Shown piece after piece: positions 151 through 59,099 of a stretch of 64,000 bases of DNA. Under the pieces are notes generated by a model. That model was not told the origin of the DNA and did no database searches. It worked only from the letters and a program-made list of their open reading frames with translations. Both the position numbers and the translations under genes were made by a program. Position 1 is the first letter of the stretch. Each line of letters starts with the position of its first letter. Source of the stretch: an uncultured Planctomycetia bacterium (lineage in GTDB: Bacteria > Omnitrophota > Gorgyraeia > Duberdicusellales > 4484-171). Where the stretch lies: the NCBI GenBank assembly GCA_964483625.1, contig CAZABB010000004.1:6337-70336 (forward strand). Reading direction: 5' to 3'.

Positions 151-606
151 TTATTTTTTACTTAGCACATCCCTTAATTCTTTCATGAACTGATTTACAT
201 CCTTAAACTGCCGGTACACGCTGGCAAAGCGGACATAGGCAATCTCATCGATTTGTGAAAGTTTCTCGATCACCAGTTCTCCCACATGTTCGGCCGCAAC
301 CTCCTGGTCGAATTTCTTCTGGATGGAACTTTCCACCTCACTGACCAGTTGATCCAGACGTTCCATGCTGATCGGTCTTTTCTGACAGGCCCGCATCAGG
401 CCGTTCAGTATTTTCTCCCGATTAAACGGTTCCCGCCGGCCGTCTTTTTTAACGACCATCAGCGGTACTTTCTCGATATATTCATACGTCGTAAATCTCT
501 TACCGCAGCTGGTGCATTCCCGGCGGCGACGGATGGAAACCCCTTCCTGGGTTTCCCGCGAATCAATCACCTTATCGGAATTATTATGACAATAGGGACA
601 TTTCAT
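151..606 (-). CDS. nrdR: Transcriptional repressor NrdR
   Basis: N-terminal zinc ribbon (CPYC...CTSCGKRF) plus ATP-cone; full-length, about 150 aa. Confidence 0.93.
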
Positions 607-685
607 ATTTTTCCCTTCGGGAAATGATTACAGGATTAAAAAAGGATTCCAGTGATTTTCCTCATCACTGTAATCTCTCATATAC

Positions 686-1171
686 TCACCGTAATCTCTG
701 TTTGTATTTTTTCAGTTTTACCTTCGCTTCTTTTAAGAAACCCTTCGCCATATCATCAGGATAACTCTCACCGTAGACAACTTCTCTGATACCGGCATTG
801 ATGATCATTTTAGCACAAATACTGCAGGGCACACAAGTCACATACAGAACACTCCCCTCTACCGATACGCCATGCAGAGCCGCCTGCAGAAGCACATTCT
901 GCTCGGCATGGAGGCCACGGCACAATTCATGCCGCTGACCGGAAGGAACAGAGAGTTGTTCTCTCAGACAACCGGCAACCTCACAATGTGATACACCTGA
1001 AGGCGCGCCGTTGTATCCGGTGGCAAGAATTCTGCGGTTTTTCACCAATACCGCGCCGACACGACGGCGCAGGCAGGTCGAACGCTGACTCACCAGAGAA
1101 GCGGCTTCCATGAAATACTCATCCCATGCCGGCCTTTTTTTCTTAGTTGTCATCTTGGTCTTCACAGACAT
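686..1171 (-). CDS. dCMP deaminase / cytidine-deoxycytidylate deaminase family (ComEB-like)
   Basis: HCEVAGC...[11 protein letters not shown] zinc-binding CDA motifs. Confidence 0.85.
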
Positions 1172-1180
1172 TTTTCTCCA

Positions 1181-2434
1181 TCAATCCATGGTTATTTCCG
1201 GATATAACGGAAAAGCGTCCACCAACTGAGCGACCGTCCGACGTACCTCATCCAGTTGTTCCTGATCGGCTTTGTGAGTTATTGCCTGGTCTATTGCCTG
1301 AGCCAGTTTCTCCATCTCTTCCTTCCCCATCCCCCGACTGGTAACCGCAGGGGTTCCGATACGTATACCACTTGTGACCAGCGGCGGCTGGGAATCGTAA
1401 GGAATAAGATTCTTATTCACCGTAATATTCACTTCTTCCAGAAGATGCGCGCATTCTTTCCCGGTAAGGCCTTTAGAACGCAGATCAACCAGAAACAGAT
1501 GGGTATCGGTACCTCCGGAGACGATGCGCAGTCCTTTTTGAGATAAACAATCGGAAAAATGGATCGCGTTAGCGACAAGATTTTTCTGATACGTTTTAAA
1601 TTCATCGGTTAATGACAATCCAAACCCGACTGCTTTAGCCGCAATGATATGCATAAGCGGCCCCCCCTGAATACCGGGGAATACGGCCGTATCGATCTTT
1701 TTGGCGAACTCTTTCCGGCAGAGAATAAATCCTCCCCGCGGTCCCCGCAGAGTCTTATGTGTAGTTGACGTTACAAACTCGGCGTATTCGACCGGATTAC
1801 AATAGATACCTGCGGCAACCATGCCGGCAAAATGGGCCATATCCACCATAAGATACGCCCCGACTTTATCGGCAATTTCCCGGAACCGGGCAAAATCGAT
1901 CGTCCGCGGATAGGCACTTGCTCCGGCAATAATCAATTTCGGTTTATGCGTAACTGCTAAGTGCAGAATTTCATCATAATCCAGCTGCTCACTTTCTTTA
2001 TGCACTCCATAGGAAATCACATTATAAAATTTTCCGCTGAAATTCAAGGGATGACCGTGCGAAAGATGCCCGCCGCAGGCAAGGTCCATCGCCAGGATCG
2101 TCTCGCCTTGAGCCAGCATAGCCAGAAGCACCGCCATATTCGCCTGAGTTCCCGAATGAGGCTGAACATTGGCGTGTTCGGCGCCGAATAATTCCTTTAC
2201 CCGGGCCCGGGCAAGATCTTCAGCTTCATCGATATACTGACATCCTCCATACCAGCGCGCTTTCGGGTATCCTTCAGCATATTTATTGGTCAAAGGTGAT
2301 GCCGCCGCCTCAAGCACCGCCAGCGGGGCAAAGTTTTCACTGGCAATCAATTCAATCTGATTACGCTGCCGGCTGATTTCATGCCTGACGCTCTGATACA
2401 CCTGGGAGTCTACTTTTTTGAGAATCTCATACAT
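1181..2434 (-). CDS. glyA: Serine hydroxymethyltransferase
   Basis: 417 aa. Canonical SHMT N-terminus (LIASENF) and the PLP-lysine motif [12 protein letters not shown]. Confidence 0.96.
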
Positions 2435-2876
2435 CTTCTTTCTCCTCTATCTTTTTTATTTTCCGCAGGCGGCGCAGATGCCGGCCTCCTTCAAAATCGG
2501 TCGTAAGCCATTTTTTTACGATCTTTCGTGCTTCTTCTCTCTTTAAGAACCCTGAAGCCAGAACGATGATATTACTGTTATTATGCTTACGGGTCAAAGC
2601 CGCAACCCTGACGCTTCCCACCAATGCCGCCCGGACTCCCTTAACCTTGTTTGCGGCGATTGAACTGCCCACTCCCGTATAACAGATCAACACGCCCCGT
2701 TCGACTTTCTTATCGCGTACTCCTTTGGCCAGAGCGTAGGAATAATCGGGATAATCGCAGGAATCCTGAGAATATGTCCCGTAATCAACGGTGACATGAC
2801 CGTTCTGGGTAGCCCACTCCATAAGGAAATTCTTCAGATTAAATCCGCGATGATCACACGCAAAACCTATCTTCAT
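2427..2876 (-). CDS. rpiB: Ribose-5-phosphate isomerase B
   Basis: [12 protein letters not shown]... RpiB/LacAB family. The start was moved to the internal Met, because the upstream extension is not conserved. Confidence 0.88.
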
Positions 2877-2888
2877 AATAACCTTTCG

Positions 2889-2984
2889 AGTCACATGACA
2901 CACGTCACACGACACACGTAAAGAAATCCTGTTTCTGTTTCCCTTTCGACGTGTGACCTTGTGACTATGTGACTTTGTGACGTG
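2889..2984. repeat. Palindromic intergenic element built of 7-8-bp TGTGAC direct repeats (GTGAC element, copy a)
   Basis: Left arm GTCACATGACACACGTCACACGACACACGT. Right arm GACGTGTGACCTTGTGACTATGTGACTTTGTGACGTGT. Related copies at 29334-29407, 55110-55144, 55993-56063 and 58961-58995. Confidence 0.75.
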
Positions 2985-2985
2985 T

Positions 2986-4047
2986 TTACAGCCATTCTCT
3001 CAATTCGACGACGGCGGTTTTGATCAGCTCATAGACTTTTTGATACACCTGACGGGGCTGACCGATGGGGTCCTGAATGTCCACCTCCGGACTCTTGGGT
3101 AAAAACTTGCTTAAGGGAAAGACACGGGCCCCGACCGTAGGCTCCAACTTTAATACGTAATCCTTCTGACTGTTTTCCATAGTAAAAATAAGATCGGCCG
3201 AAAGAAGCGTCTCGCGGTCAAGCCGGCAGGACGAGTGGTCGACCGCGCCGATTTCTTCTTCATGAAACAGGATATCGAGCACCGAATCCGACGCTCCTCT
3301 TCCTTCGGAAGCAGCAACGCCACAAGAAATAATTTCATACCGGTCGGCAAGTTGAGGATCGTATTCGAATAAATACTTCTTAAGGAGGTATTCGGACAAA
3401 ACCGAACGACAGGTGTTTCCCGTACAGACAAACACGAGACGTTTTTTGACGAACGTTTCCACGATTTCCCGCGTCGTAATCACCCCTTCCCGCAAGATTT
3501 TAAACGGATGATACGTAATATCAAGCACCGTTGACGGCTGACAATACCGGGAAACTCCACCATCAACAATCATATCTATCTGTTCATTGAACGAGCTTTC
3601 CACATCATCGGCACTGAAAGCTTCCTGCTGACCGGTCACATTGGCCGAGGGAAGATAAATCGGGTCGGTTAACCCAGAAAGAATCCGCTGCAGGATATCG
3701 TGAGCCGGGACTCGTACTCCCACCTTCTCATCCTTCTTATCATAAAATATCATCGTCAACGGCCCCGGCCAGAACCGTTCAATGAGGCGATACCCGTAAG
3801 GCGGTAACGTAGTAAAGATATTCAACGCCTGATCTACACTTCCCACCACAAGGGTAAACGGCTTACTCGTATCTCTCTGTTTTATCGTATACAATTTCTC
3901 AACCGCAGCCTTGTCCCGGGCCAGCGCTCCCAGCCCGTACACCGTCTCGGTAGGAAGAGCGACGATTCCACCGTGCAAAATCGTATCCTTAACTTCCTGA
4001 AAGGATGCCAGATCCGAACCCTGCGCGTTCAGCTGAACTCTTTTCAT
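2986..4047 (-). CDS. Fusion of L-threonylcarbamoyladenylate synthase (TsaC/Sua5, YrdC domain) with a low-molecular-weight protein tyrosine/arginine phosphatase
   Basis: N-terminus has GGIVALPTETVYGLGA (YrdC). C-terminus has LVFVCTGNTCRS (CX5R P-loop of LMW-PTP) and a DP motif. Confidence 0.85.
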   Translation of the reverse strand: MKRVQLNAQGSDLASFQEVKDTILHGGIVALPTETVYGLGALARDKAAVEKLYTIKQRDTSKPFTLVVGSVDQALNIFTTLPPYGYRLIERFWPGPLTMIFYDKKDEKVGVRVPAHDILQRILSGLTDPIYLPSANVTGQQEAFSADDVESSFNEQIDMIVDGGVSRYCQPSTVLDITYHPFKILREGVITTREIVETFVKKRLVFVCTGNTCRSVLSEYLLKKYLFEYDPQLADRYEIISCGVAASEGRGASDSVLDILFHEEEIGAVDHSSCRLDRETLLSADLIFTMENSQKDYVLKLEPTVGARVFPLSKFLPKSPEVDIQDPIGQPRQVYQKVYELIKTAVVELREWL

Positions 4048-4502
4048 TTTTTGAATTTTTTCTCTACTTGCCCCAGAGGTTTCTCATATTCTTTGTATTG
4101 CCCGGCAAGAATACGTAACGCAAAAATAATTCCGTTAATGAACCCCTTTTTACCGATACCGGTACTGACCAGACCGATCCCCTTAGGCACCTCGGCAATA
4201 GAAAGAAGGCTTTCTATCCCGTTGAGAGGCCCCCCTTCAAGCGGCACACCGATGACCGGGACATTCACATAAGAAGCGACAACACCGGGCAATGCCGCTG
4301 AAAGACCGGCACAGGCAATAATTACTTCAACTCCCCGGCGTTTAGCGTATTTACAAAACGTCCTCAACTCATCGGGATGACGATGGGCGGAAATGACCTC
4401 TAACGTATAGGGAACCCGGGTACTTTTCAGAAGATCAAACCCGTCCTGTAATTTCGTTTTATCCGATTTACTGCCCAGAATTATTGCGATTTTTGCCTTC
4501 AT
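4044..4502 (-). CDS. purE: N5-carboxyaminoimidazole ribonucleotide mutase
   Basis: MKAKIAIILGSKSD...SAHR...AGLSAALPGVVA PurE signature. Confidence 0.93.
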   Translation of the reverse strand: MKAKIAIILGSKSDKTKLQDGFDLLKSTRVPYTLEVISAHRHPDELRTFCKYAKRRGVEVIIACAGLSAALPGVVASYVNVPVIGVPLEGGPLNGIESLLSIAEVPKGIGLVSTGIGKKGFINGIIFALRILAGQYKEYEKPLGQVEKKFKK

Positions 4503-4553: not shown

Positions 4554-5843
4554 CTACCGTGAGAGTAATTTTAAGCCCTTATCGCCGATATCATGCCGGA
4601 AATGCATCCCTTCAAAGCCGATTCGATCAACCCCCTCATACGCTCTTTCTTTAGACTGAGCCAGCGTATCCCCCAGAGCCACGACGTTCAAAACCCTCCC
4701 GCCTGAGGTAACGATGTCTCCGGTATCAGAACGTGTGGTACCTGCATGAAATACGTACGTATCCTTTTGAGAATCAATCCGTTCCAGCCCGGTTATGACG
4801 TTGCCTTTCTGGTAGGCTGCGGGATACCCGCCGGAGGCAAGTACCACCGCGATACAATACCGCGGATCCCAGAGGAGTTCGGTTTCTGCCAATCTTTCTT
4901 CGGCAGACTTGATCATTACTTCCAGCAGGTCTGATTTCAGTTTCGGTACAACTACCTGAGTTTCGGGATCCCCGAACCGGACATTGAACTCAAGAACATA
5001 GGGAATCCCGTCTTGAATCATCAACCCGGCATAGAGCACCCCTTTATACTTCTTACCCTGCCGCCTTAATCCTCCGATAAGCGGTGCGAAAATCTCGTTG
5101 ATGATTTTTTCATACATCGCCTCACTCACGACCGGAGCCGGGGCATACGCCCCCATCCCGCCGGTATTGGGCCCCTGGTCCTGATCGAATACCCGTTTAT
5201 GATCCTGTGATGCCACAAGCGGCAAAATTGTTTCTCCGTCGGTGATAACCAGGATCGATGCTTCTTCGCCGCTGAGCATCTCCTCAATCACAATCCGATT
5301 ACCGGCCGGACCGAATTGTTTTTTTCGCATAATCATATCGATCGCTTTTTGAGTTTCATCGCGGCTTTTAGCGATAATCACTCCTTTACCGGCAGCCAGT
5401 CCGTCGGCTTTGATCACGACCGGCATCGGTATCGTATTGATGTATGAAGACGCCGCATCGGCATCATCGAACACGGTAAAATCCGCGGTAGGAATGCTGA
5501 ATTCCCTTAACAATTCTTTCGTGTAAATCTTACTGCCTTCAAGCTGAGCCAGTTCTTTTGATGGCCCGAAAACAGAAATCCCCTCGGTCTCAAACAGATC
5601 AACGATCCCCTCGACTAACGGAACTTCCGGGCCGACGATGACAAAATCGATTTTTTCTTTTTGCGCGAAAGACAATAACGCATTCATATCATGCGCTTGG
5701 ATCGCGACATTTTCCCCCACCTGGCTTGTTCCGCCGTTTCCGGGTGCACAGTATATATTCTGGGCAAGGGCAGACTGGGCAATTTTCCACGCCAGACAAT
5801 GTTCCCGGCCGCCGGAACCGATAATTAAGACTTTTTTACCCAT
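4554..5843 (-). CDS. purD: Phosphoribosylamine-glycine ligase
   Basis: MGKKVLIIGSGGREHCLAWK... ATP-grasp protein, 429 aa. Confidence 0.94.
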   Translation of the reverse strand: MGKKVLIIGSGGREHCLAWKIAQSALAQNIYCAPGNGGTSQVGENVAIQAHDMNALLSFAQKEKIDFVIVGPEVPLVEGIVDLFETEGISVFGPSKELAQLEGSKIYTKELLREFSIPTADFTVFDDADAASSYINTIPMPVVIKADGLAAGKGVIIAKSRDETQKAIDMIMRKKQFGPAGNRIVIEEMLSGEEASILVITDGETILPLVASQDHKRVFDQDQGPNTGGMGAYAPAPVVSEAMYEKIINEIFAPLIGGLRRQGKKYKGVLYAGLMIQDGIPYVLEFNVRFGDPETQVVVPKLKSDLLEVMIKSAEERLAETELLWDPRYCIAVVLASGGYPAAYQKGNVITGLERIDSQKDTYVFHAGTTRSDTGDIVTSGGRVLNVVALGDTLAQSKERAYEGVDRIGFEGMHFRHDIGDKGLKLLSR

Positions 5844-16768: not shown

Positions 16769-17219
16769 ATGATCAAAGATTGGTCACGGATATCGGTTAC
16801 GGTTTCCAACAACAAATAGCACAAATTACTCGAATGGGTATCTCAAAATATCTTAACCACAGAGCTCACGGAGTTCACCGAGAGGATACAGAGGATATTT
16901 GGTTTCGTGCTTCTGACCCATTTAAAGCGCAGTGTTTTGCAAAGACACCCCATCGATGCTCGATGGGCGGAAACCAAATATCTCTAGTTTAAAAACTCTC
17001 ATCTTTCCTCAGTGTTCTCGGTATCCTCGGTGGTTGATGTATTCGGATACCTTTATTCGTGAATTTCGTGTTATTCGTTGTAAAAAGCATTTTCTTGTAC
17101 GGTTATTTTTACCGGAACGTCTGCCGTTAACCGATTGACGAAACGGGCATCCCCGATGGAACAATCGGGACACGCGTTACCGTTTACCGAATGACGAATA
17201 ATACTGTTTGGGCGTTATC

Positions 17220-18722
17220 CTAAAAATAAAGATCTCGTTCGCCGCTCTTTACCCTCCCGTAATACTCTATCAACTGAGGATAGACCTCGGGTATGACTCT
17301 TTTCGTTTCAGCCAGCTCCTGTTCAATAATCTTCTCTCCCGCGGATTTGGTCTCAGCGGAAGCGAAATCATCGAGCCATTCCCGGAAAGTAAGGATCGCG
17401 TTTAATTTACAAAATTGCCCCTCCTTACCGGTCTTTAAGAGTTCCATGATGCATTCGCCGGTCCGGCCGCAGCGATATCCCGCGGTGCAGAACGACGTGA
17501 TATACCCGTCCCGGGCGAGTTCTGCGATCACCTCATCCAGACTGCGCGTATCACCGAGTAAAAACTGCTGACGGGAACCCTCCTGCTGGCGGGAGGCGTC
17601 ACTGTAGGCTCCGATACCGATACGGGTTGAAGCATCGATCTGCGTAACCCCCAAAGGAAGTGTCTGACGGCGCATCGCGGCGGTCTCCCGCGCCGTTAAA
17701 ATCATTCCGGTATAGGGAATAGCCAGGCGTAATACCGTAATAAGTTTTTTAAAATCTTCATCACTCACTTTATATTTACTCTCAAGAGTAAACGGCGTAT
17801 GCGATGCCTCCTCCAGCCTGGGAAACGATACCGTATGCGGCCCCACCCCGCAATGAGCTTCCAGAGCCCGCGCGTGACTCACCAGGCCCATCACCTCGAA
17901 TTTCCAGTCGTATAAACCGAACAGAGCACCGATACCCACGTCATCGATTCCCGCCTCAAGGGCCCGGTGCATACAGAAAAGACGCCAGTGGTAATCTCCT
18001 TTGATCGTGCCGCGGGGATGAAGCCCGCGGTACGTATCATGATGGTATGTTTCCTGGAATACCTGATACGTCCCGATGCCGACCTCTTTCAACCGCCGTA
18101 ACGATTCAACTTCCAACGGCGGCGCGTTTACATTTACCCGGCGGATCTGTCCTGTTCCGTTTTTCGTTTTTACCACAACCTCATAAATCGCCCGGATACT
18201 ATCGACCATGTAATCGATATCGGTTGCCGGATGCTCCCCGTAGACAACGATAAGCCGTTTATGTCCGATGGTGCCTGCGAGTACCTCGATTTCCCGTTTG
18301 ATCTCATCGGGAGAAAGCATTCTGCGGCGGGCATTGAGATTATCGCTGCGGAAACCGCAATACAGACAATTGTTCACGCATAGATTAGACAGATACAGCG
18401 GCGCGAAGGTAACGATACGGTTATCATAGACTTTTTTCTTCACCCTCACCGCCGCCTCTCTCATCTGGCTGAGCAGATCGGGATCGGTTACGTTCAGAAG
18501 CGCCGCGGTTTCTTCTCCGGTCAGGGGCTGGACGGCCAATGACTTTTTTAAAATATCTCTCACGTACGCCGCCTCGGGCGATTGTTGGGCCCTCAACGCG
18601 GTAAATATTTTCTCCTCATCGATAAAATCTTTTTCCCGGTGAAGATATTTCTCTACCTGATCGCCGCGCACGCGGTTTTTTATCCAGTCGTCCATATGTT
18701 TTCTCTCATGCGCCGTTGCCAT
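17220..18722 (-). CDS. hydG: Radical-SAM tyrosine lyase HydG-like [FeFe]-hydrogenase maturase
   Basis: 500 aa. FAPLYLSNLCVNNCLYCGF (CX3CX2C) ThiH/HydG core. About 120-aa C-terminal extension with a Cys cluster (CTAGYRCGRTGEC…13…C) ending FCKLNAILT, as in HydG. Confidence 0.8.
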   Translation of the reverse strand: MATAHERKHMDDWIKNRVRGDQVEKYLHREKDFIDEEKIFTALRAQQSPEAAYVRDILKKSLAVQPLTGEETAALLNVTDPDLLSQMREAAVRVKKKVYDNRIVTFAPLYLSNLCVNNCLYCGFRSDNLNARRRMLSPDEIKREIEVLAGTIGHKRLIVVYGEHPATDIDYMVDSIRAIYEVVVKTKNGTGQIRRVNVNAPPLEVESLRRLKEVGIGTYQVFQETYHHDTYRGLHPRGTIKGDYHWRLFCMHRALEAGIDDVGIGALFGLYDWKFEVMGLVSHARALEAHCGVGPHTVSFPRLEEASHTPFTLESKYKVSDEDFKKLITVLRLAIPYTGMILTARETAAMRRQTLPLGVTQIDASTRIGIGAYSDASRQQEGSRQQFLLGDTRSLDEVIAELARDGYITSFCTAGYRCGRTGECIMELLKTGKEGQFCKLNAILTFREWLDDFASAETKSAGEKIIEQELAETKRVIPEVYPQLIEYYGRVKSGERDLYF

Positions 18723-19380
18723 GTTTCACCTTTTTCCGGGAAGTATTATTTTTTGTCCGGGACTTCCCCGTCGCGTTAACAAAATAAATAAGGTTTTCCA
18801 GTTCCGAACGAAGATCGACATTATTAATAATCGTGTCGGCGTCGGACCGCAGACGGATCGGCGCGAAATTCAGCACACCTTTTATCCCGGCCTCAACCAG
18901 AAGATCCATTACCCGCTGCGCGGCGTTATCGGGTACGGCGATAATTCCTATCTCTACCCCGTTCTTTTTCACGTAAGGTTTCAGCTTTTCGAGACCGTAG
19001 ATCGGCACATCGACCTCATCGGGACGCCGGGAACTGTTTACATCGAAAGCCGCGACGACTTTTATCCCGTCCTGTTCGAACCCTTTATAATTGATCAATG
19101 CCTTCCCGATTTTCCCCGCTCCCACAATAATTACCCGCTGGATCCGGTCTTTGCCCAGGATATCATTCAGCCTTTCCAGCAGGGACTCTATTTGATATCC
19201 TCCTTTTTTATTACCGGAAATCCCGAATATGGAAAAATCCTTACGTACCTGAGCCGACGACACTCCCGTAGCGTCAGCCAGGTTATCGGAAAAGACCTTG
19301 ATAAACCCCAATGTTTTAAACCGCTTAAGCGCGTGGCGGTAATTGGAAAGCCGTATAATATAATTTTTATTTACCATCAT
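18706..19380 (-). CDS. rex: Redox-sensing transcriptional repressor Rex
   Basis: N-terminal wHTH (RLSNYRHALKRF) plus Rossmann GAGKIG. A perfect Rex box lies upstream. Confidence 0.92.
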   Translation of the reverse strand: MMVNKNYIIRLSNYRHALKRFKTLGFIKVFSDNLADATGVSSAQVRKDFSIFGISGNKKGGYQIESLLERLNDILGKDRIQRVIIVGAGKIGKALINYKGFEQDGIKVVAAFDVNSSRRPDEVDVPIYGLEKLKPYVKKNGVEIGIIAVPDNAAQRVMDLLVEAGIKGVLNFAPIRLRSDADTIINNVDLRSELENLIYFVNATGKSRTKNNTSRKKVKHGNGA

Positions 19381-19439
19381 CCTCTCTTTTTTTTCTAAAG
19401 AAAAACAAGTGTACCATATTTGACCGGTATGTCAAGATT

Positions 19440-19457
19440 TTGTGACTTTTTTCACAA
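19440..19457. promoter_or_regulatory. Rex operator (TTGTGACTTTTTTCACAA)
   Basis: Perfect match to the Rex consensus TTGTGAAnnnnTTCACAA. It sits immediately upstream of the -35 of rex. Confidence 0.85.
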
Positions 19458-19482
19458 AATGCTGTGATACATGCCGGATCAA

Positions 19483-20781
19483 TTAAATCCCCAGATCAGT
19501 AGGAGCCCTTCCCAGAGATTTAAGCAGACCGATCGTTTCGGCTATCTGGTCAGGTATGGATTGCGACTGATGAGCCCGCCCGGGATAAATCGCATAGAGA
19601 TCCCGATACTCCCGCGGCGTTACGTTCAGCATAACCGAATTGGCGCCGGAAAACAGGCCCTGCCGGCGAGCCTCTGAATCCAGTGTTTCAAAAGCGGTCG
19701 TAACCAGGATTTTGCCCTGCGAAGGGTCAACCAACCGAATAAGCGCGATGACCATCTTCATATATTCGGACGATACCGAATGATGCCCCTCAAGCGGTGT
19801 GCCGGCGACGGGAATAAACGGACCGAACGAATACATCTCAGCCTTAAGTTCTCTGGCCAGAAGGATATCGTTGATAATATCTGCCGACGTCTGGCCGGGT
19901 AACCCGATCAGGCCGCCAGTTGCCACCAGGTATCCCGTCTGGTATGCCGTCCGGATAAGATCGATGCGGGCCCCAAGGGAACCGTGCGGATGCAATTGCT
20001 GGTATAATTTTTCCCGGGACGTCTCAAACCGCAACAGTATACCTCTGGCGCCGGCTTGATAATAACGCGTCAGATCCTCGCGGGAAATTTCGCCGAAACT
20101 GATAAAAACCAGCGCCCCCAACTGGTAGCGTATCTTTCTAATCACCTCCGCCAGCTCATCGCTGCGATAACCGCAATCCTCCCCGCTTTGCAGCACCAAC
20201 GCTTTAAACCCGTACTCGGTCACCGCCGCCTTCGCCGCCGCGAATATTTCTTCACCGTCCATATGATACCGGACAAGACCGGACACAGAGGTGGAAATAC
20301 CGCAATAATGGCATTCTCTGGCGCAGCGGTTGGATATCTCGATAATACCGTGGACACAACAGGCGTTCTTATGATATTTCTGTCTTAAAAAATTAGCGTT
20401 CTTACCGACAAATTCACGTTCGGCGGGATTCTCCAGACAAAGCAGATACTCCAGACTCTCTTTATCCAGACCGAACCCGTGGTTAACCTTATCCAGCAGG
20501 TTTAATACCCGCGGCGATGCGTTCTGCTCCTGGAGGTCCAGCCGGGATAACTCCAGGTCAACCTCCTGCAGGTCAAAAAACGTTTCCTTCCACGTCGCCA
20601 GGATACTTTCGGCTTCATCGGACGCGATCTTCTGAATTGCATATCCGCCCTGAGCGTAAATATAATCCCCGACGCGAAGATCGTCGAATTCATTATACGC
20701 ACGGCGTTCTTCGCCGAAATAATCGACGATCACGAATTTATCCTCGAATCGTTTTACTTTTCCCGGGATCGCGTAACACAT
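19483..20781 (-). CDS. Fusion of a HypC/HybG-type hydrogenase chaperone domain (N-terminus) with radical-SAM HydE-like [FeFe]-hydrogenase maturase
   Basis: Residues 1-75 (MCYAIPGKV…GDYIYAQGGYAIQKI…DEAESILATW) align along the whole length of HypC, and Cys2 is retained. The remainder matches HydE: IIEISNRCARECHYCG, LVLQSGED, GLPGQT, GPFIP, YRDLYAIYPG. Confidence 0.82.
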   Translation of the reverse strand: MCYAIPGKVKRFEDKFVIVDYFGEERRAYNEFDDLRVGDYIYAQGGYAIQKIASDEAESILATWKETFFDLQEVDLELSRLDLQEQNASPRVLNLLDKVNHGFGLDKESLEYLLCLENPAEREFVGKNANFLRQKYHKNACCVHGIIEISNRCARECHYCGISTSVSGLVRYHMDGEEIFAAAKAAVTEYGFKALVLQSGEDCGYRSDELAEVIRKIRYQLGALVFISFGEISREDLTRYYQAGARGILLRFETSREKLYQQLHPHGSLGARIDLIRTAYQTGYLVATGGLIGLPGQTSADIINDILLARELKAEMYSFGPFIPVAGTPLEGHHSVSSEYMKMVIALIRLVDPSQGKILVTTAFETLDSEARRQGLFSGANSVMLNVTPREYRDLYAIYPGRAHQSQSIPDQIAETIGLLKSLGRAPTDLGI

Positions 20782-20852
20782 TCGTCGCTTCGCTCCTTTA
20801 CACTGATGATCACAGATTCCAAACTGATGCTCGCAGATAATTGATCAGTGGT

Positions 20853-21095
20853 TTAATCCATATCGAAAGACACCAGTCTCAGTTCACGCGCCGGGCTCTT
20901 CTCGATCACAAGTGCCGCCCCCTCAAGAACGGTACCGGGAGATTTTTCCTTGAAGAAGAGCCTGAGCACTTCTTCGTTGATTTCGGTGAATTCTCCCATT
21001 TTAAGATACACTTTGGTAATCTTAGCCGCTTTGTTACCGCGGGCGTGATAGAGAATGTCTTCGAAGAGATCTTTCACTAAATGCATTTCATGCAT
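20853..21095 (-). CDS. hypA: HypA-like hydrogenase nickel-incorporation protein lacking the zinc finger (truncated)
   Basis: MHEMHLVKDL… matches the HypA N-domain. The ORF ends before the CxxC…CxxC Zn motif. Confidence 0.6.
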   Translation of the reverse strand: MHEMHLVKDLFEDILYHARGNKAAKITKVYLKMGEFTEINEEVLRLFFKEKSPGTVLEGAALVIEKSPARELRLVSFDMD

Positions 21096-21576
21096 GAGAA
21101 AACTCCTTTCTGATAATCTCAATGATTCTATCGGCCGTTTCTTTTACTGCCGCCGATAATCCTTCTTTAAGGTCTACCGATCCCGGCTGAATACCCAGAA
21201 ATTCCACATCGCCCCCCGTATCTTCGGCAATAAGCCGGGCAATAACTTTGAGTGAGATCATATGGGTACTTAACGCCGTCTCCGGGATTATTTCCTGATC
21301 GACCAGCCGCGCCTGACCGGCCGGGAGGCCGAAATCAGCCGCGTCAATGATCAGAATCCGCGCGGGCTTTACCGCGGCAACCTCATCGATGATATTTTCC
21401 GGGTTCTGCCCGGCATCGATCACCGTAAGCTGCCCGGTATTTTCAAGCTCGGCGGCGATATAGGGACCGACGCCGTCGTCGGAACGCAAACTGTTTCCTA
21501 CAGTAATACATACGGTATGTCCTCCGGGGTGAAAAGAAAGCGCGTTGATTACATCAGCGGTTAACGAACTTGACAT
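21088..21576 (-). CDS. [NiFe]-hydrogenase maturation endopeptidase (HycI/HyaD family)
   Basis: GNSLRSDDGVGPYIA motif characteristic of the large-subunit C-terminal protease. Confidence 0.88.
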   Translation of the reverse strand: MSSSLTADVINALSFHPGGHTVCITVGNSLRSDDGVGPYIAAELENTGQLTVIDAGQNPENIIDEVAAVKPARILIIDAADFGLPAGQARLVDQEIIPETALSTHMISLKVIARLIAEDTGGDVEFLGIQPGSVDLKEGLSAAVKETADRIIEIIRKEFSHA

Positions 21577-22879
21577 TGAGAAAATGCGCCGAACATGATA
21601 TGCAGGGATCGTATGCCCGTACCAGCATCTCCATCGTCAGGGTGATTTCTTCATCGGACTTATCGAGGATTTCCGGCACCAGTTTTTTCATATCCTGTTC
21701 GATACTGTTGACATTCTGCGAGGTAGGGATAATACAGTTGGCATTGACGATCTTCCCCTTATCATCGACCTCGTAGTTATGGAAGAGAAGTCCCCGCGGC
21801 ACCTCCACCGCGCCCACGCCGTTACCGGCTTTGACTGCAATGGTATTGTTTTCGTTTAAGCCGACGACGATCTCTTCATCCCGGTTCACTCCCTTGTTTT
21901 TGAAATGTTCGAGGATGGCGATGGATTCTTCAAGGCTGTGCACACATTCAACCAGCTGAGCCGCGGTATTGAGAAAAGAATTGTAGCAGATTTTATTCAA
22001 TCCGAGAAAATCGGCGACGGCCTTGGCTTTCGGATGCAGTTTTTTATAATTTAAATTCACCCGCGCCAGAGCCCCGACCATATACGACTGGCGGTTCCAT
22101 TTAGCGTGTTTGGCCGAAGAATGCGGCATGACGAATTCATTGGTTACCTCACGATAGTCATGTTTATCCATGCGTTTCCCGTCGGTCGAACCGACATCTC
22201 CCGCGAGCATCGGATACTCGTCGTCATCACTGACCAAACCGACATACTCGGTCTCCCGCTTGAATTCCGGAAATTTCAAGGTCTTACATAACTCAACCGT
22301 CTCCTCCATATCGACACGCATATTGACCAGGATATCCAGCATCGCGTCCAGATCTTTTTCCTTCGGCAGTTTCGTAAACCCGCCTACGATACAGGAAATC
22401 GGATGGATATGCCGGCCGACGAGAATATCACAGACATCGTTACACTGTTTTTTCATCCGCAGGGCGCGCCGGACGACTTTATTGTGACTTTCGATCAGCG
22501 GCACAAAACTCTTAACCCCCAGCAGGTCGGGAGCGACCAGTAAATAGATATGCAAAATATGACTGTCCAGGTTTTCCTGGTGCAGGAGTAATTTCCTTAA
22601 ACGCACGGTCTGCTCCGAAGGAGTAAACCCGATAGCGTCTTCAGCGGCCTGGATCGATGCCAGAGAATGGCCGCAGGCGCAGATACCGCAGATCCGGGAG
22701 GTAATATGCTGCGCTTCGAAAATAGAACGGCCCCGCAGCATACCTTCAAAAAAACGGGGGGACTCGACGATCTCAAGGCGGCATTCTTCCAATTTACCTT
22801 CCTTGACGTTTACGACAATATTCCCGTGTCCCTCGACGCGGGTAAGATATTCGACATTGACTTTAACGTTTCTTGCCAT
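21554..22879 (-). CDS. [NiFe]-hydrogenase large subunit, group 3b (sulfhydrogenase alpha)
   Basis: L1 motif RICGICACGH. C-terminal DPCISCSAH followed by a 9-aa cleavable tail. Confidence 0.92.
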   Translation of the reverse strand: MARNVKVNVEYLTRVEGHGNIVVNVKEGKLEECRLEIVESPRFFEGMLRGRSIFEAQHITSRICGICACGHSLASIQAAEDAIGFTPSEQTVRLRKLLLHQENLDSHILHIYLLVAPDLLGVKSFVPLIESHNKVVRRALRMKKQCNDVCDILVGRHIHPISCIVGGFTKLPKEKDLDAMLDILVNMRVDMEETVELCKTLKFPEFKRETEYVGLVSDDDEYPMLAGDVGSTDGKRMDKHDYREVTNEFVMPHSSAKHAKWNRQSYMVGALARVNLNYKKLHPKAKAVADFLGLNKICYNSFLNTAAQLVECVHSLEESIAILEHFKNKGVNRDEEIVVGLNENNTIAVKAGNGVGAVEVPRGLLFHNYEVDDKGKIVNANCIIPTSQNVNSIEQDMKKLVPEILDKSDEEITLTMEMLVRAYDPCISCSAHFLNVKFVNR

Positions 22880-23630
22880 CTGTTTCTGTCTCCTCCAATT
22901 CACGCGGTTTGTTGTACATATCGATTTTATTCACTACCCAGTCAAGAGGAATATTATGTTTTTCTAAAATATCCATCTGCCCGTTTTTCGCCGGATTCGA
23001 CACCATACCCCGGCAGCCGTAACAGATATTCCCGTTATTGATACACCAGGAATTACACCCGGCGCGGGTTACCGGACCAAGACAGGTAATCCCCTTATCG
23101 TACATGCATTCGTTCTCATTGAGTTTACACTCACGGCAAACGGCGTGATCGGGCACCGTATAAGGAATTCCCTGCAGGGCGCACTTTAATACTTTCACAA
23201 ATTCCGGCTGATACACCGGACACCCGTGCACGAAATAATCCACCTTCACCACCTGGTGCACCGGACAGGTAGGAATGGTCTCAAAATGCTTCGCGCCGTC
23301 TTTATACACGTATTCTTTTATTTCGTTCAGATCAAATTTATTTTTCATCCCGTTGACGCCGCCGATTGTCGCGCAGGATCCGTAGGCGATAAGAACTTTG
23401 GAACGCTTGCGGATGTTCTTGATCCGTTCGACCCCATGCGTTGTGGTAATACTGCCCTCGACGACCGCCACATCGTAGTCGCCGTCCCATTTTTCCGACA
23501 TCGCTTCTCTGAATTCGACGACATCAATTATCTCAAGAATATCAAGCAACGTTTCGCCGAAATTGGCGACCTGAAGCTGGCATCCTTCACAACAAGAGAA
23601 ATCAAAAAAAGCTACTTTTGGTTTTTTCAT
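22863..23630 (-). CDS. [NiFe]-hydrogenase small subunit, group 3 (sulfhydrogenase delta)
   Basis: N-terminal FDFSCCEGCQ proximal-cluster motif; further Cys clusters downstream. Confidence 0.9.
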   Translation of the reverse strand: MKKPKVAFFDFSCCEGCQLQVANFGETLLDILEIIDVVEFREAMSEKWDGDYDVAVVEGSITTTHGVERIKNIRKRSKVLIAYGSCATIGGVNGMKNKFDLNEIKEYVYKDGAKHFETIPTCPVHQVVKVDYFVHGCPVYQPEFVKVLKCALQGIPYTVPDHAVCRECKLNENECMYDKGITCLGPVTRAGCNSWCINNGNICYGCRGMVSNPAKNGQMDILEKHNIPLDWVVNKIDMYNKPRELEETETDGKKR

Positions 23631-23632
23631 AA

Positions 23633-24469
23633 TTATAACGCCTCGATATTATTTTTTATTTTATCGTAAGAAAATACCGGTCCATCCTGACAACAGTACA
23701 CGTCTCCGATCTGGCAATGCCCGCATTTGCCTACGCCGCACTTCATATGCCGCTCCAGCGAAAGATAGATCTGCCTCTCCGGGATCCCTTTCTTTAAGCA
23801 TTCGGCGATAACAAACTTATACATAATCGGCGGGCCGACGACGATTCCGAAAGTACGCTCGGTATCAAGCGTTACACCCGGGATCAGAGACGTGATCAGT
23901 CCGACATTACCTTTCCAATCGGGATCGGCTTTGTCGACAGTACAGTTGAAATTGACATCAAGCCTCTTCTCCCACTGCTCGACTTCCTCGCCAAACAGCA
24001 TATCCTTGGGCGTTTTACAGCCAAGAAGAATACTTACCTTGCCGAAATCACGGCGGTTATCGATCACAAAATTAATCAGCGAACGTAACGGTACAATTCC
24101 CAGCCCTCCGGCGACAAATAACAAATCATTTCCTTCCAGAATCTGTGTAGGGAACCCCACTCCGAACGGACCGCGAATACCGACGGTATCGCCGGCCTTT
24201 AAGCCATGAAGGGCATTCGTTACTTTCCCGACGTTACGCACGACCAGTTCGAAATATCCCCGGATTGTCGGGGAAGAAGAGACCGAAATCGGCGCCTCCC
24301 CCACTCCGGGGAGAGCGACCATAACAAACTGGCCCGGTTCGTGATCGAGACTTTCGCCTCCGGCCAGAGCGATTTTGAAATATTTCTCCTGAGCGGTAAT
24401 CATCTTCGCCTCGAGAATTTCCCCCGTTTTTACGTTATACGCCGATTCTTTTAACGTGACTCGTTTCAT
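23633..24469 (-). CDS. Sulfhydrogenase gamma subunit (FAD/NAD(P)-binding oxidoreductase with a 2Fe-2S cluster)
   Basis: Ferredoxin-NADP reductase-like fold; C-terminal CGVGKCGHCQ…CC cluster. Confidence 0.85.
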   Translation of the reverse strand: MKRVTLKESAYNVKTGEILEAKMITAQEKYFKIALAGGESLDHEPGQFVMVALPGVGEAPISVSSSPTIRGYFELVVRNVGKVTNALHGLKAGDTVGIRGPFGVGFPTQILEGNDLLFVAGGLGIVPLRSLINFVIDNRRDFGKVSILLGCKTPKDMLFGEEVEQWEKRLDVNFNCTVDKADPDWKGNVGLITSLIPGVTLDTERTFGIVVGPPIMYKFVIAECLKKGIPERQIYLSLERHMKCGVGKCGHCQIGDVYCCQDGPVFSYDKIKNNIEAL

Positions 24470-25500
24470 TGTGCTCCTTCGGCTAACTGATTGATTGTTT
24501 CCTTTAAATTAATCCGGGCCATACAGGTGCGCGAACACCGTCCGCACCCGGTACAAAAATACCGGCTGTATTTATCCACCGGGTATTTGAATTTACGCAT
24601 ATACCGGTGCCGCTGGCGGTCACCTCGTTCTTCGCGAAAGTTTTCTCCTCCGGCAACCTCCGCGAACGGTTCACTCTGGCAGGAATCCCAGCGGCGTTTT
24701 CTCCCCCCCGTGGTCAGATTCAAATCAATTTCATCCTCGATATCGAAACAGTAGCAGGTCGGGCACACGTTGGTACAGTTGCCGCAGGCGACACAGCGTT
24801 TATGAAGGTCCTGCCAGACGGGTGACTCGAATGATTTATCAAACAGACTTTTGAGATTATTATGAGTAACGGCAACCTCATCCTTAAAGATCTCGCGTTT
24901 CTTCTTACGCATCGCCTTTAACGCTTCCCGGTGTTCTTCTGTGGCTTTCTGAAACAGTCCGGTTTTTTCAATCAGTTCTTCACCTTCAAGCGTATTGATA
25001 TGCACCATAAAAAAATCATCAAGCTCGGTAAAAAAGAGATCATATCCTCCGTTGGGCAGATGGTTATCCATCACCTTACAGTTGGCGTACTCATCGCAAT
25101 ATTCATTACATTCAAGGCCGATGATCAGAATTCTGTTCTTACGAGCCAGGTAGTTGATATCCTTGGGCTTATCGGAAAACACCATATTCAGGCACTGAAT
25201 ACCGGCCAGATCACAGGTATGCACCCCGAAAATAATCATGTCCTGATATTCCATCACCGCGTTCCAGGCCTTTTTACTTTTATCGTATTGCTGCAGGGTT
25301 TCAGTCTGAGGCAGGAAATACTTCTTCGGCGGAAGGATTGTAGGTATATATTTAAGGGAGACTTCCTTGCCGGAGGCAACTTCCTCGAAGGCGTAATTCT
25401 TTACGCCCCGCTTAACGGGAGCCACGGTCTTTTTTATCTGAGCCAAACGGGAAATGAATTCACTGAGATCTGTTTTATGAAGGATTGCGTATTGCGTCAT
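24466..25500 (-). CDS. Sulfhydrogenase beta subunit (4Fe-4S protein)
   Basis: CVACGNCTNVCPTCYC and CTGCGRCSRTC ferredoxin-like motifs. Confidence 0.85.
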   Translation of the reverse strand: MTQYAILHKTDLSEFISRLAQIKKTVAPVKRGVKNYAFEEVASGKEVSLKYIPTILPPKKYFLPQTETLQQYDKSKKAWNAVMEYQDMIIFGVHTCDLAGIQCLNMVFSDKPKDINYLARKNRILIIGLECNEYCDEYANCKVMDNHLPNGGYDLFFTELDDFFMVHINTLEGEELIEKTGLFQKATEEHREALKAMRKKKREIFKDEVAVTHNNLKSLFDKSFESPVWQDLHKRCVACGNCTNVCPTCYCFDIEDEIDLNLTTGGRKRRWDSCQSEPFAEVAGGENFREERGDRQRHRYMRKFKYPVDKYSRYFCTGCGRCSRTCMARINLKETINQLAEGAQ

Positions 25501-25518
25501 GGTATCACCCTCTCTATT

Positions 25519-25536
25519 TTGTGAACGTGTTCACAT
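25519..25536. promoter_or_regulatory. Rex operator (TTGTGAACGTGTTCACAT) in the hydrogenase promoter
   Basis: 17 of 18 match to the Rex consensus. It lies between the predicted -10 (25548-25553, minus strand) and the start codon of the hydrogenase beta subunit. Confidence 0.8.
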
Positions 25537-25547
25537 ATATCCTGACA

Positions 25548-25576
25548 AAGATAACATAATTGCGAAATGTTGTCAA
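25548..25576 (-). promoter_or_regulatory. Sigma70-like promoter of the hydrogenase operon
   Basis: Minus strand: TTGACA, 17-nt spacer, TATCTT; the Rex box follows. Confidence 0.55.
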
Positions 25577-25616
25577 ATGAATTTTTGAAATATCGCAGAT
25601 AATGAACCGGGGAAAT

Positions 25617-26330
25617 TTACAGACCGAGGAATTTTATCGCCGCCCCGCTTAAGAAAATCGCAAGGCCCGCGGCGGCATGAGAATACCGCTGGAATCTCCC
25701 CAGGGAAAATTTCGCCAGACCGAACGCTCCGGCAAATACAACCCCCAGCATCGTTGCGATCGTGGCAAAGGCAAATACTCCCGACACCGCGATCACCGAT
25801 CCCATATTCCCTGTCGCTGCCGGATACATGAGAATAGGTATCAGCGGTTCACATGGTCCAAAGACAAAGATCGTAAACAGGACCCAGGGAGTCAGACTCG
25901 GTTTCGCCTTCGCCTGATGCACGTGCATATGCTGGTGCAGATGATTATGGTGATGAGTATGAGCGGACCCATCGGCGTGATGATGCACATGCCGATGCGG
26001 GGTTTTACGGATAACATAGCGAATACCCCAGATAAAATAGGCCAACCCGAACGCGAGCAGCAGCCAGGCGGCAATTTCTCCCCGGACCGATTCGATTCGC
26101 TCTAAATGCAGAACCGCCACTCCTAAACTGATCCCGAGAAATCCCAGGACGATCGAACTTGCCACGTGCCCGATGCCGCAGAGTACGGTGATGAACGCGG
26201 TTTTGGACATACTCCAGCGGCGGGCTTTGGACATAACGATAAAAGGCAGATAATGGTCGGGCCCCAGCACCGTATGGATGAACCCGATCGTGAACGCCGT
26301 CCCCATTAAAATGAATGTTTCATTGGTCAT
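25617..26330 (-). CDS. Nickel/cobalt transporter of the NicO (RcnA/HupE-like) family with a His-rich loop
   Basis: Six predicted TMs. HTVLGPDH and FGPCEPLIP duplicated motifs. Central loop HRHVHHHADGSAHTHHHNHLHQHMHVH. Confidence 0.7.
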   Translation of the reverse strand: MTNETFILMGTAFTIGFIHTVLGPDHYLPFIVMSKARRWSMSKTAFITVLCGIGHVASSIVLGFLGISLGVAVLHLERIESVRGEIAAWLLLAFGLAYFIWGIRYVIRKTPHRHVHHHADGSAHTHHHNHLHQHMHVHQAKAKPSLTPWVLFTIFVFGPCEPLIPILMYPAATGNMGSVIAVSGVFAFATIATMLGVVFAGAFGLAKFSLGRFQRYSHAAAGLAIFLSGAAIKFLGL

Positions 26331-26369
26331 AAATACCTCCTTCTAAAATATCTACATTTATCAGAATTT

Positions 26370-27401
26370 TTACTCGTTGGCAAGCAATTTTTCAATCAAA
26401 GCGTAGACTTCATCCGGCGAGATGCTGTCCAGACACAGAAAATCATTCTGACAATCATGCGCCCGGCACACGGGACAATTGACGTTTTTATGGATGAAGA
26501 GGGATTTTTCCCCCAGTGGCCGCCAGCGTGTGGGAGAAAGTCCGGGATTACTCCGTCCGAAAATAGAAATCACCGGAATCCCAAGTGCGGCGGCGATATG
26601 CACGGGACCGGAATCGCCCGAAACAAACAGTTTCGCCCTCTCTAAGAGAGCAGTCAGCTCAAAAAGACTGAGTGCCCCTCTTAAATCGATGACTCCTTCT
26701 TCGCCGGCGACCTCACCGGCAAATTCCTTTTCGCTCTCAGCGGTGGTTACCACAACCGGCAGGTTCAGATTTTGCCTGATCTTTTTTATCAGCGCGACGA
26801 AAGAACGCTGTTTCCATCGTTTCGACGGACAGGATGCCGCAGGATGGATCACCACAAAATCCTGTCCTTCATCGATCCCTTTCTTTTTAAGCATTTCCCC
26901 GACACTGCGCCGTGCCGAATCCTTTACCGGGACAAAAAGCGGCACATCACGCACCTGGATATCCAGCGCCCGCAGGATATCCAGCGTGTATTCACTTTCG
27001 TGTTTTTCCCCGCGGTGTTTACGGTGCGGTATTTTCTCGGTCAAAAGCCAACTCAGGTTACGATCCCACCCCACTCGTGTTTTAATCCCCGCAAGATAAG
27101 CGATCAGATGGGCCCGATTGGTAGGATGAAGAACAACGGCCAGATCGAAATTTTTCCGTCTTAAATCCCGCGCGAACCGCCACGTCGCGGGGAAACTCTT
27201 ATGAATCCCGTACTTATCGTACACGATAACCTCATTTACCTCGGGATTGTCTTCAAGCAGACCACGCGTATACGGCCGGCACATAAAAGCGATATAACTA
27301 TCGGGATAAGCCCGGCGCAGATTGCTGATAACAGGGACCGAAAGGACGACATCCCCCATCCGGTCGGTACGAATGATCAGAATGCGTTTGAACGGTTTCA
27401 T
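26370..27401 (-). CDS. Glycosyltransferase family 9 (LPS heptosyltransferase-like)
   Basis: ILIIRTDRMGDVVLSVP N-terminal GT9 motif. Confidence 0.85.
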   Translation of the reverse strand: MKPFKRILIIRTDRMGDVVLSVPVISNLRRAYPDSYIAFMCRPYTRGLLEDNPEVNEVIVYDKYGIHKSFPATWRFARDLRRKNFDLAVVLHPTNRAHLIAYLAGIKTRVGWDRNLSWLLTEKIPHRKHRGEKHESEYTLDILRALDIQVRDVPLFVPVKDSARRSVGEMLKKKGIDEGQDFVVIHPAASCPSKRWKQRSFVALIKKIRQNLNLPVVVTTAESEKEFAGEVAGEEGVIDLRGALSLFELTALLERAKLFVSGDSGPVHIAAALGIPVISIFGRSNPGLSPTRWRPLGEKSLFIHKNVNCPVCRAHDCQNDFLCLDSISPDEVYALIEKLLANE

Positions 27402-52399: not shown

Positions 52400-52478
52400 T
52401 GGTCGGGAAGGGGGGATTCGAACCCCCGACCCCTTGAACCCCATTCAAGTGCGCTAATCCAGGCTGCGCCACTTCCCG
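52400..52478 (-). tRNA. tRNA-Pro (anticodon GGG)
   Basis: Cloverleaf with acceptor CGGGAAG/CTTCCCG, anticodon loop A-T-GGG-G-T (G37), T-arm GGTTCGAAT, and encoded CCA. Confidence 0.85.
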
Positions 52479-58422: not shown

Positions 58423-58648
58423 TAGCTCGTCGTGCGTATCGCGTTCTGCGGAACGCGCAAAAGAAACAAGAGAAATCCGTTTTTCAAACGCAGTACGCGT
58501 GTCGCGTTTCGCGTTACGATAAATACTGGAACGGGCGATCAGCATAGCTCGTCGTGCGTATCGCGTTCTGCGTAACGCGCAAAAAACAAGAAAAACCCGA
58601 TTTTCAAACGCATGACGCGTTCCGCGTTACGATAAATACATGGAGCGG
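58423..58648. repeat. Tandem direct repeat of 122 bp and 104 bp. Each unit ends in a 16-mer resembling the tRNA-Gly 3' end
   Basis: Units begin GCGATCAG at 58423 and at 58545. They end TGGAACGGGCGATCAG, compared with the tRNA-Gly 3' end TGGAGCGGGCGATCGG. Confidence 0.75.
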
Positions 58649-58714
58649 GCGATCGGAATCGAACCGACATAACAGGCTTGGAAGGCCTGTGTTCTACCAC
58701 TGAACTACACCCGC
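58641..58714 (-). tRNA. tRNA-Gly (anticodon TCC)
   Basis: GCGGGTGTAGTTCAGTGGTAGAACACAGGCCTTCCAAGCCTG…GGTTCGATTCC…CGCCCGCTCCA. Confidence 0.9.
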
Positions 58715-59016: not shown

Positions 59017-59099
59017 TGGGCAGGGGAGGATTCGAACCTCCGAAGCGATAACGCAACAGATTTACAGTCTGTCCCCTTTGGCCACTCGGGAACCTACCC
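59017..59099 (-). tRNA. tRNA-Tyr (anticodon GTA)
   Basis: GGGTAGGTTCCCGAGTGGCCAAAGGGGACAGACTGTAAATCTGT… with a long variable arm and T-arm GGTTCGAATCC. CCA is not encoded. Confidence 0.88.

Follow-up and report, generated by a model that had tools for sequence, protein, structure and literature searches.

Candidate Rex operators in a [NiFe] hydrogenase–rex–hydG cluster of an uncultured Omnitrophota-like bacterium

Is the production of hydrogen by an uncultured Omnitrophota-like bacterium placed under the control of the redox-sensing repressor Rex, and which genes would such a regulon contain? The question is raised by a stretch of 64,000 nucleotides (64 kb, hereafter the window) from an uncultured Planctomycetia bacterium assigned to the Omnitrophota in GTDB (GenBank assembly GCA_964483625.1, contig CAZABB010000004.1, positions 6,337 to 70,336), in which a rex gene stands among genes for a hydrogenase and for its maturation. 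An original prediction, made from the nucleotide sequence, described two near-perfect Rex operators in this cluster and proposed that they place the hydrogenase and maturase genes in a Rex (NADH/NAD+) regulon. Having analyzed the statistics of the two palindromes, their placement with respect to predicted promoters and their conservation in related genomes, we consider both to be probable operators of the Rex protein encoded in the same cluster.

Two palindromes matching the Rex consensus

Every gene of the region is carried by the minus strand, a detail that the original prediction did not give, and the order of transcription is hydB, hydG (the gamma subunit of the hydrogenase), hydD, hydA, hycI, a short hypA, a gene for a HypC::HydE-like fusion protein, rex, and a gene of the radical-SAM HydG family, likewise named hydG (Table 1). 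The two palindromes are TTGTGACTTTTTTCACAA at 19440-19457, which precedes rex, and TTGTGAACGTGTTCACAT at 25519-25536, which precedes hydB; they are named O_rex and O_hyd below. Each agrees with the Rex consensus TTGTGAANNNNTTCACAA at 13 of its 14 specified positions, and the description of both sites as near-perfect matches therefore holds, with one mismatch in each. When at most one mismatch is allowed, exactly two matches occur in the window, against 0.01 ± 0.10 expected from 100 dinucleotide-preserving shuffles of the window, none of which contained two; these statistics exclude a chance origin of both palindromes. With up to three mismatches the window contains 6 matches, where 3.15 are expected. 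This count is at chance level, thus the looser matches are noise, those with 2-3 mismatches were rejected as further operators, and only the two sites merit attention. A weight matrix trained solely on the sites of other loci ranks the two boxes of the window first and second.

The product of rex is, as judged from its sequence, a bona fide Rex with intact DNA-binding and NAD(H)-binding domains. It combines an N-terminal winged helix (PF06971) with a C-terminal NAD(H)-binding Rossmann domain (PF02629), scores 239.8 bits with NF003996 (cut-off 138), and aligns over its full length with the Rex chains 3keo, 2vt2, 5zz5, 3wg9, 1xcb and 3ikt of the PDB (E = 9e-43 to 7e-29). Alignment with these chains includes the recognition-helix region (SAQVRKDFSIFG...GY), the GAGKIG motif of the Rossmann domain and the FD motif that follows its second strand. 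We infer that the protein binds NADH and DNA as its relatives do.

A consensus promoter scan of 16800-26400 revealed that the two best minus-strand promoters fall exactly at the two boxes. O_hyd is located between the -10 hexamer (25553-25548) and the ribosome-binding site and ATG of hydB (25500), at roughly +6 to +23, in agreement with its proposed place between the -10 and the start codon of the beta-subunit gene. O_rex, likewise found upstream of rex as had been claimed, lies 60 nt before the rex ATG and 4 nt before the -35 hexamer (19435-19430), from about -41 to -58; it adjoins this hexamer without overlapping the core promoter. The reported overlap of 17 nt between rex and the radical-SAM hydG was recovered as well: the rex stop TGA (18708-18706) falls inside hydG, whose ATG is at 18722, and since this ATG is preceded by a good AAAGGTGA ribosome-binding site we regard the overlap as real. 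The same coupling of rex and hydG was found again in the related loci L081, L083, L102 and L106. A terminator scan identified no terminator-like site between the fusion gene and rex, so read-through from the hydB promoter into rex-hydG is possible.

Conservation of the boxes in related loci

Related loci were collected by scanning a genome collection with the window Rex, which yielded 80 loci with 54-64% identity from Omnitrophota, Fibrobacterota, Planctomycetota, Auribacterota and other phyla; further loci were gathered with the fusion protein as a query. An exact-sequence search with the same Rex gave no record. The nearest fully syntenic relative is L081, a metagenome-assembled genome (MAG) of Omnitrophica (GCA_016935525.1), in which the fusion protein is 78% identical and the neighbours on both sides are the same; by this synteny the window belongs to an Omnitrophota-like bacterium. 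The other nearest relative, L083, is a 3-kb JGI contig with 98% identity.

In L081 both boxes occupy the same positions as in the window. Its O_hyd reads ATGTGAACGTATTCACAA, to be compared with ATGTGAACACGTTCACAA in the window: the half-sites are the same, the spacer is different, and the -35 and -10 hexamers are identical. O_hyd is retained in L081/L082, L106, L046, L060, L075 and L002, and throughout these relatives its half-sites are conserved while the spacers vary. Its setting differs between loci. In L081/L082 and L106 the box stands between the -10 hexamer and the start codon; the syntenic L106 possesses one box (TTGTGATTTAATTCACAA, 23 nt before hydB), and its rex is joined to the operon by a 4-nt overlap. 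L046, L060 and L075 have a promoter of another design, and there the box (TTGTGATAATATTCACAA or a close variant of it) overlaps the -10 hexamer; in L002 the box precedes a small hypA-like gene that heads the operon. The box has thus persisted through changes in the architecture of the surrounding promoter.

For O_rex, 13 loci of alignment A2, from several phyla, share a homologous box that precedes an invariant TTGAC by 4-5 nt. In Omnitrophota, Planctomycetota, Auribacterota, WOR-1 and a MAG of Bacillota alike, the motif accompanies rex, whatever stands upstream of it. The matches are also specific: of the 10 with at most one mismatch in the first 80 loci obtained with Rex (1.2 Mb), six precede rex, three precede hydB and one adjoins an [FeFe] hydrogenase gene. 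In L087, L103 and L104, which contain the same hydrogenase operon and no rex nearby, no box was found.

The half-site letters are conserved among the relatives and do not co-vary, which argues for recognition by a protein rather than for base pairing. It is accordingly very improbable that the palindromes act as RNA, either as a hairpin in the 5' untranslated region or as a terminator after the fusion gene, or that they are chance inverted repeats. The O_rex region does fold at -14.5 kcal/mol (z = -3.25), but the hairpin in the 5' untranslated region of hydB reaches merely -5.1 kcal/mol (z = -0.07), G+C richness and a trailing U-run are lacking in both hairpins, and the terminator scan was empty at these places; the chance part of this explanation is excluded by the shuffle statistic given above (2 versus 0.01).

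Three further kinds of palindrome were noted in the related loci. A recurrent match with 2 mismatches, TTGTGAAAGTTTTCTCAG, occurs in about 20 of them (e.g. L014, L020, L021, L030, L039) at 76-93 nt into the rex coding sequence and was rejected as an artefact of coding conservation; Rex-box scans of this clade will systematically pick it up as a false positive, although it is absent from the rex of the window. In L065 a perfect box, TTGTGAACAATTTCACAA (1862-1879), directly follows the stop codon of a plus-strand [FeFe] hydrogenase gene (89-1861), and on its other side a convergent hydF-hydG-hydE-orf171 operon comes to its end. An operator would be unexpected at such a place, except if the small plus-strand open reading frame (ORF) at 1948-2331 is real. 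Finally, a drifted palindrome, AATCGTnnn...TTCACGATT, precedes both hydB and rex in L105 (about 5285-5310 and 19565-19590) and rex in L107 (about 3360-3385). Its replacement of the TTGTGAA-type box in these two loci suggests the same regulatory link with an altered half-site preference of Rex (TCGTGA).

Competing explanations and proposed regulation

Several observations weigh against the assignment of both boxes to Rex. O_hyd scores just 13.9 with the weight matrix, a value reached 0.22 times per shuffled window. This matrix was built from rex-upstream sites of AT-rich relatives and penalises the G+C-rich spacer of O_hyd, therefore we relied on the half-site count and on conservation instead. 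Two rex-adjacent relatives, L036 and L090, are without a recognisable box before hydB, thus the link is frequent, not universal. Two more points concern the identity of the binding protein: the Rex consensus contains TGTGA-N6-TCACA, a core common to CRP-type sites, and O_rex, upstream of the -35 hexamer and centred at about -47, has a position more typical of activators. Both would suit a regulator of the CRP/FNR family that binds the palindromes in place of Rex. We regard such a regulator as quite improbable, given that the flanking T/A of the Rex consensus (TTGTGAA...TTCACAA) is retained, that the motif tracks rex across phyla and is missing where rex is missing, and that the ORFs scanned in the window included no protein of the CRP/FNR type.

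The remaining point concerns the promoter of rex. A comparison of L046, L060, L007, L079, L036, L002, L057, L024, L078 and L053 with the window (19381-19482) showed that most relatives carry two boxes round the rex promoter, about 62 bp apart, of which the downstream one covers the ribosome-binding site (TTGTGAAnAAAGGAGCAA). This downstream box has disappeared from the window, L081 and L083, where the upstream O_rex alone is kept; in the window O_rex overlaps neither the -35 nor the -10 hexamer. O_hyd could then be the true repressor site and O_rex a relic without effective autorepression, with rex-hydG transcribed from its own promoter or by read-through. This explanation seems unlikely: of the two boxes, the one retained is better conserved and keeps its exact spacing to the -35 hexamer, the box of L081 is still a palindrome with one mismatch despite the divergence seen in the neighbouring fusion protein, and a Rex dimer that covers the 18 bp and their flanks would extend as far as the -35 hexamer. 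Because O_rex lies upstream of this hexamer and the second operator of most relatives is missing here, we can only infer the strength and sign of rex autoregulation.

If Rex acts at both sites, as we consider probable, Rex at O_hyd would block transcription of hydBGDA-hycI-hypA-hypC::hydE, and Rex on O_rex, touching the -35 hexamer, would also limit rex-hydG. When NADH builds up, Rex would close round it and leave the DNA. The NAD(P)H-linked, H2-evolving [NiFe] hydrogenase would then be made together with the maturation proteins and may serve as a valve for excess reductant. Some transcription of rex-hydG may in addition come from the hydB promoter by read-through. For the steps of binding and of the response to NADH this scheme draws on the established behaviour of the Rex family. 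The predicted targets fit a role in NAD(P)H re-oxidation and redox balance, the gamma subunit of the four-subunit hydrogenase being FAD/NAD(P)-binding, and the group 3b hydrogenases of Omnitrophota have been read as reductant sinks (PMC8542988).

The proposed control of both structural and maturation genes by the NADH/NAD+ state is supported in silico by the Rex gene, the promoters and the conservation of the sites. One point needs correction: HydG belongs to a maturase family of the [FeFe] type and the structural genes encode a [NiFe] enzyme, so that it is not evident that the two belong together. The genes with a clear role in [NiFe] maturation (hycI, hypA and the gene of the HypC fusion) are part of the hydB operon.

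Genes of the cluster and its surroundings

Table 1. Predicted features of the hydrogenase–rex–hydG cluster (17220-25576), in the order of transcription, and RNA genes of the window
Feature	Position	Strand or sequence	Remarks
Predicted sigma-70 promoter of the hydrogenase operon	25548..25576	minus	TTGACA, 17 nt, TATCTT, TG before the -10; 10/12 matches
Rex operator O_hyd (predicted)	25519..25536	ATGTGAACACGTTCACAA on the coding (minus) strand	between the -10 hexamer and the hydB ribosome-binding site
hydB, beta subunit, 4Fe-4S, AsrA-like	24466..25500	minus	Fer4_22; sulfhyd_ShyB/HydB 258/250 bits, under the Thermococcales-specific equivalog cut-offs
Gamma subunit	23633..24469	minus	FAD-binding, NAD(P)-binding and 2Fe-2S domains
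Delta (small) subunit	22863..23630	minus	Oxidored_q6; ShyD/HydD
Alpha (large) [NiFe] subunit	21554..22903	minus	likely true start is the ATG at 22879
hycI, HycI-type maturation endopeptidase	21088..21576	minus	family match
Short HypA-like protein, 80 aa	20853..21095	minus	PF01155, profile positions 1-70 of 112
HypC::HydE-like radical-SAM fusion, 432 aa	19483..20781	minus	HupF_HypC + Radical_SAM + BATS
Rex operator O_rex (predicted)	19440..19457	TTGTGAAAAAAGTCACAA on the coding strand	4 nt upstream of the rex -35 hexamer
Predicted rex-hydG promoter	19408..19435	minus	TTGACA, 16 nt, TACACT, TG before the -10
rex, redox-sensing repressor	18706..19380	minus	winged-helix domain and Rossmann domain with GAGKIG; NF003996
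Radical-SAM hydG	17220..18722	minus	TIGR03955; overlaps rex by 17 nt
tRNA genes, four	52403-52478, 58644-58714, 59017-59099, 59398-59470	minus	sole Rfam matches in the window

The hydrogenase is built of alpha, beta, gamma and delta subunits, of which beta is AsrA-like and gamma is a flavoprotein resembling AsrB; the gene order is hydB-G-D-A. The best NCBIfam matches of all four subunits are Shy/Hyd sulfhydrogenase subunits, but they remain under the Thermococcales-specific equivalog cut-offs. The alpha subunit contains RICGICACGH near its N-terminus (RxCGxCxxxH) and DPCISCSAH at its C-terminus (DPCxxCxxH), the latter followed by the extension FLNVKFVNR; the gene of the HycI-type protease adjoins the gene of this extended subunit. 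We assign the enzyme to the group 3b type (sulfhydrogenase-type, NAD(P)-linked) of [NiFe] hydrogenases by its architecture and best family matches.

Two of the accessory proteins have unusual domain structures. The short HypA-like protein has kept the MHE N-terminus and is missing the zinc-finger half, and the same 80-aa gene is present in L081, L101, L102, L105, L106 and L107. The fusion protein consists of a full HypC domain at the N-terminus (MCYAIPG) and a HydE-like radical-SAM domain. Its score with the HydE family TIGR03956 (227.5 bits) is under the cut-off of 254.6, therefore we named it HydE-like, not HydE; TIGR03956 is still its best match, ahead of PylB and BioB.

The neighbours of the cluster are housekeeping genes for purine synthesis, lipopolysaccharide core glycosyltransferases, topoisomerase, RecJ and ArgRS. 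Between the radical-SAM hydG and an aldo-keto reductase gene there is a non-coding gap of 450 nt (16769-17219), against 98 nt in L081. Within this gap there are short CACGAA repeats and, on the minus strand, a terminator-like hairpin (16967-16949); Rfam gave no match there.

A radical-SAM maturation module

The HydG protein of the window scores 457.7 bits with TIGR03955, above the cut-off of 312.15, and its radical-SAM motif CX3CX2C is present as CVNNCLYC. The canonical C-terminal motif CX2CX22C is altered: at residues about 431-458 the protein reads CTAGYRCGRTGEC...FCKLNA, with the pattern CTAGYRC...C...C, in which the second Cys is changed to Gly and extra Cys residues follow. This variant motif was also found in HydG of L081, L026 and Fibrobacterota, and the canonical C(A/T)ACYR in other HydG proteins of Omnitrophota. 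In L023 and L065, both from Fibrobacterota, variant-motif HydG is encoded in hydF-hydG-hydE clusters beside an [FeFe] hydrogenase, and for this reason we think that the variant is probably still functional. The same occurrence led us to reject the variant motif as a mark of a [NiFe]-specific HydG subfamily.

The fusion protein has more than 120 relatives with 56-98% identity, all of which combine HypC and radical-SAM domains and most of which are from Omnitrophota. A HydG gene comes after the gene of the fusion, either immediately or with rex in between, in the window and in L081, L089, L095, L101, L102, L103, L104, L106 and L107; in L094 and L096 a HydG gene stands directly before it. These genes form a module that comprises hycI, the short hypA (80 aa), the HypC::HydE-like fusion, sometimes rex, and HydG (17220-21576 in the window; L081, L089, L094-L096 and L101-L107). 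The module accompanies group 3b operons and, in L102, a [NiFe] operon of group 4 (Mbh/Mrp-type). Among the window ORFs scanned we found no HydF and no [FeFe] hydrogenase, and the HypC fusion is the sole HydE-like gene there. In nine Pfam-annotated contexts of the module, neither HypD/E/F nor an [FeFe] hydrogenase was detected within ±10 kb, and HydF was detected in L105 alone.

Since the module travels with [NiFe] operons without HypD/E/F within 10 kb, a contribution of radical-SAM proteins to [NiFe] maturation is suggested. Tentatively, the cluster may be a self-contained, Rex-controlled unit of a [NiFe] hydrogenase and a non-canonical radical-SAM maturation module (short HypA, HypC::HydE-like protein and a HydG homologue of tyrosine lyases) that would build or deliver the Fe-CO/CN group, replacing HypD/E/F or working alongside them, with HydG as a [NiFe] maturase. 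Counting against this role is the service of the same HydG subfamily in ordinary hydF-hydG-hydE clusters of Fibrobacterota. L105 also counts against it, having a full hydF-hydG-hydE set beside its [NiFe] operon: a canonical lyase-hydF-hydG-orf-hydE cluster (406-4473) stands directly upstream of a group 3b [NiFe] operon that ends with hycI-hypA-HypC::HydE, and together they make one supercluster. In favour of the role, Omnitrophota MAGs have been reported to carry a single hydrogenase type each (PMC8542988). A search of the literature library available to us returned nothing relevant on this module, on a HypC-HydE fusion or on HydG in [NiFe] maturation.

Comparison with known systems

Redox control of a group 3b [NiFe] sulfhydrogenase operon is exerted in Pyrococcus furiosus by SurR, a redox-responsive factor. 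The two systems are alike in placing a redox-responsive regulator over a group 3b [NiFe] operon. In contrast to Rex, SurR is an unrelated protein of the ArsR type with a disulfide switch that responds to sulfur, recognises another DNA motif and activates the hydrogenase genes. The comparative-genomic Rex regulons of Ravcheev et al. 2012 (J Bacteriol 194:1145) reportedly cover Firmicutes, Actinobacteria, Thermotogae, Chloroflexi, Deinococcus-Thermus and Deltaproteobacteria, and not Omnitrophota or the relatives found here in the Planctomycetes-Verrucomicrobia-Chlamydiae (PVC) and Fibrobacteres-Chlorobi-Bacteroidetes (FCB) groups. Our literature search found no paper linking Rex and Omnitrophota.

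Two bacterial systems resemble the window more closely. In Caldicellulosiruptor bescii, Rex sites verified by electrophoretic mobility shift assay (EMSA) are known at the promoters of hydG, of the [NiFe] and [FeFe] hydrogenases and of rex (Sander et al. 2018/2019; PMC6391272). The same 18-bp consensus is found in both organisms, before hydG, hydrogenase structural genes and rex, and both would share derepression at high NADH with disposal of reductant as H2, which for the window is a prediction. C. bescii differs in that its sites are EMSA-verified whereas those of the window are predicted, and in that its hydG is paired with copG whereas rex and hydG overlap in the window. Moreover, it is a Firmicute whose targets are a bifurcating [FeFe] and an Ech-type [NiFe] hydrogenase, unlike the group 3b-type NAD(P)-linked [NiFe] enzyme of the Omnitrophota-like window (PMC6391272).

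Caldithrix abyssi has a rex-hydrogenase operon with a predicted Rex box, which was read as NADH-dependent derepression of H2 evolution (PMC5317091). As in the window, rex is attached to the hydrogenase operon, and a candidate box, with two deviations from the consensus, lies just upstream of rex. The enzyme of C. abyssi is, however, a trimeric [FeFe] hydrogenase, and its operon has a single box and rex as the first gene, whereas the window has two boxes and rex follows the structural and maturation genes (PMC5317091).

Rex control of hydrogenase is thus already known elsewhere, and the window is a new example of it in an uncultured Omnitrophota-like lineage. With the candidate operators, the Rex paradigm would come to include an uncultured PVC-related phylum and, among its targets, a group 3b-type NAD(P)-linked [NiFe] hydrogenase. 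This extension is useful but expected, and it yields two clean operator sequences for binding or reporter work. The conserved module that holds rex is a more interesting lead than the operators themselves: if it does mature [NiFe] enzymes, it would be relevant to a long-standing question, the source of the CO ligand in anaerobic [NiFe] maturation. For the physiology of these abundant anaerobes, the predicted regulon gives a concrete, testable rule for when they would make H2.

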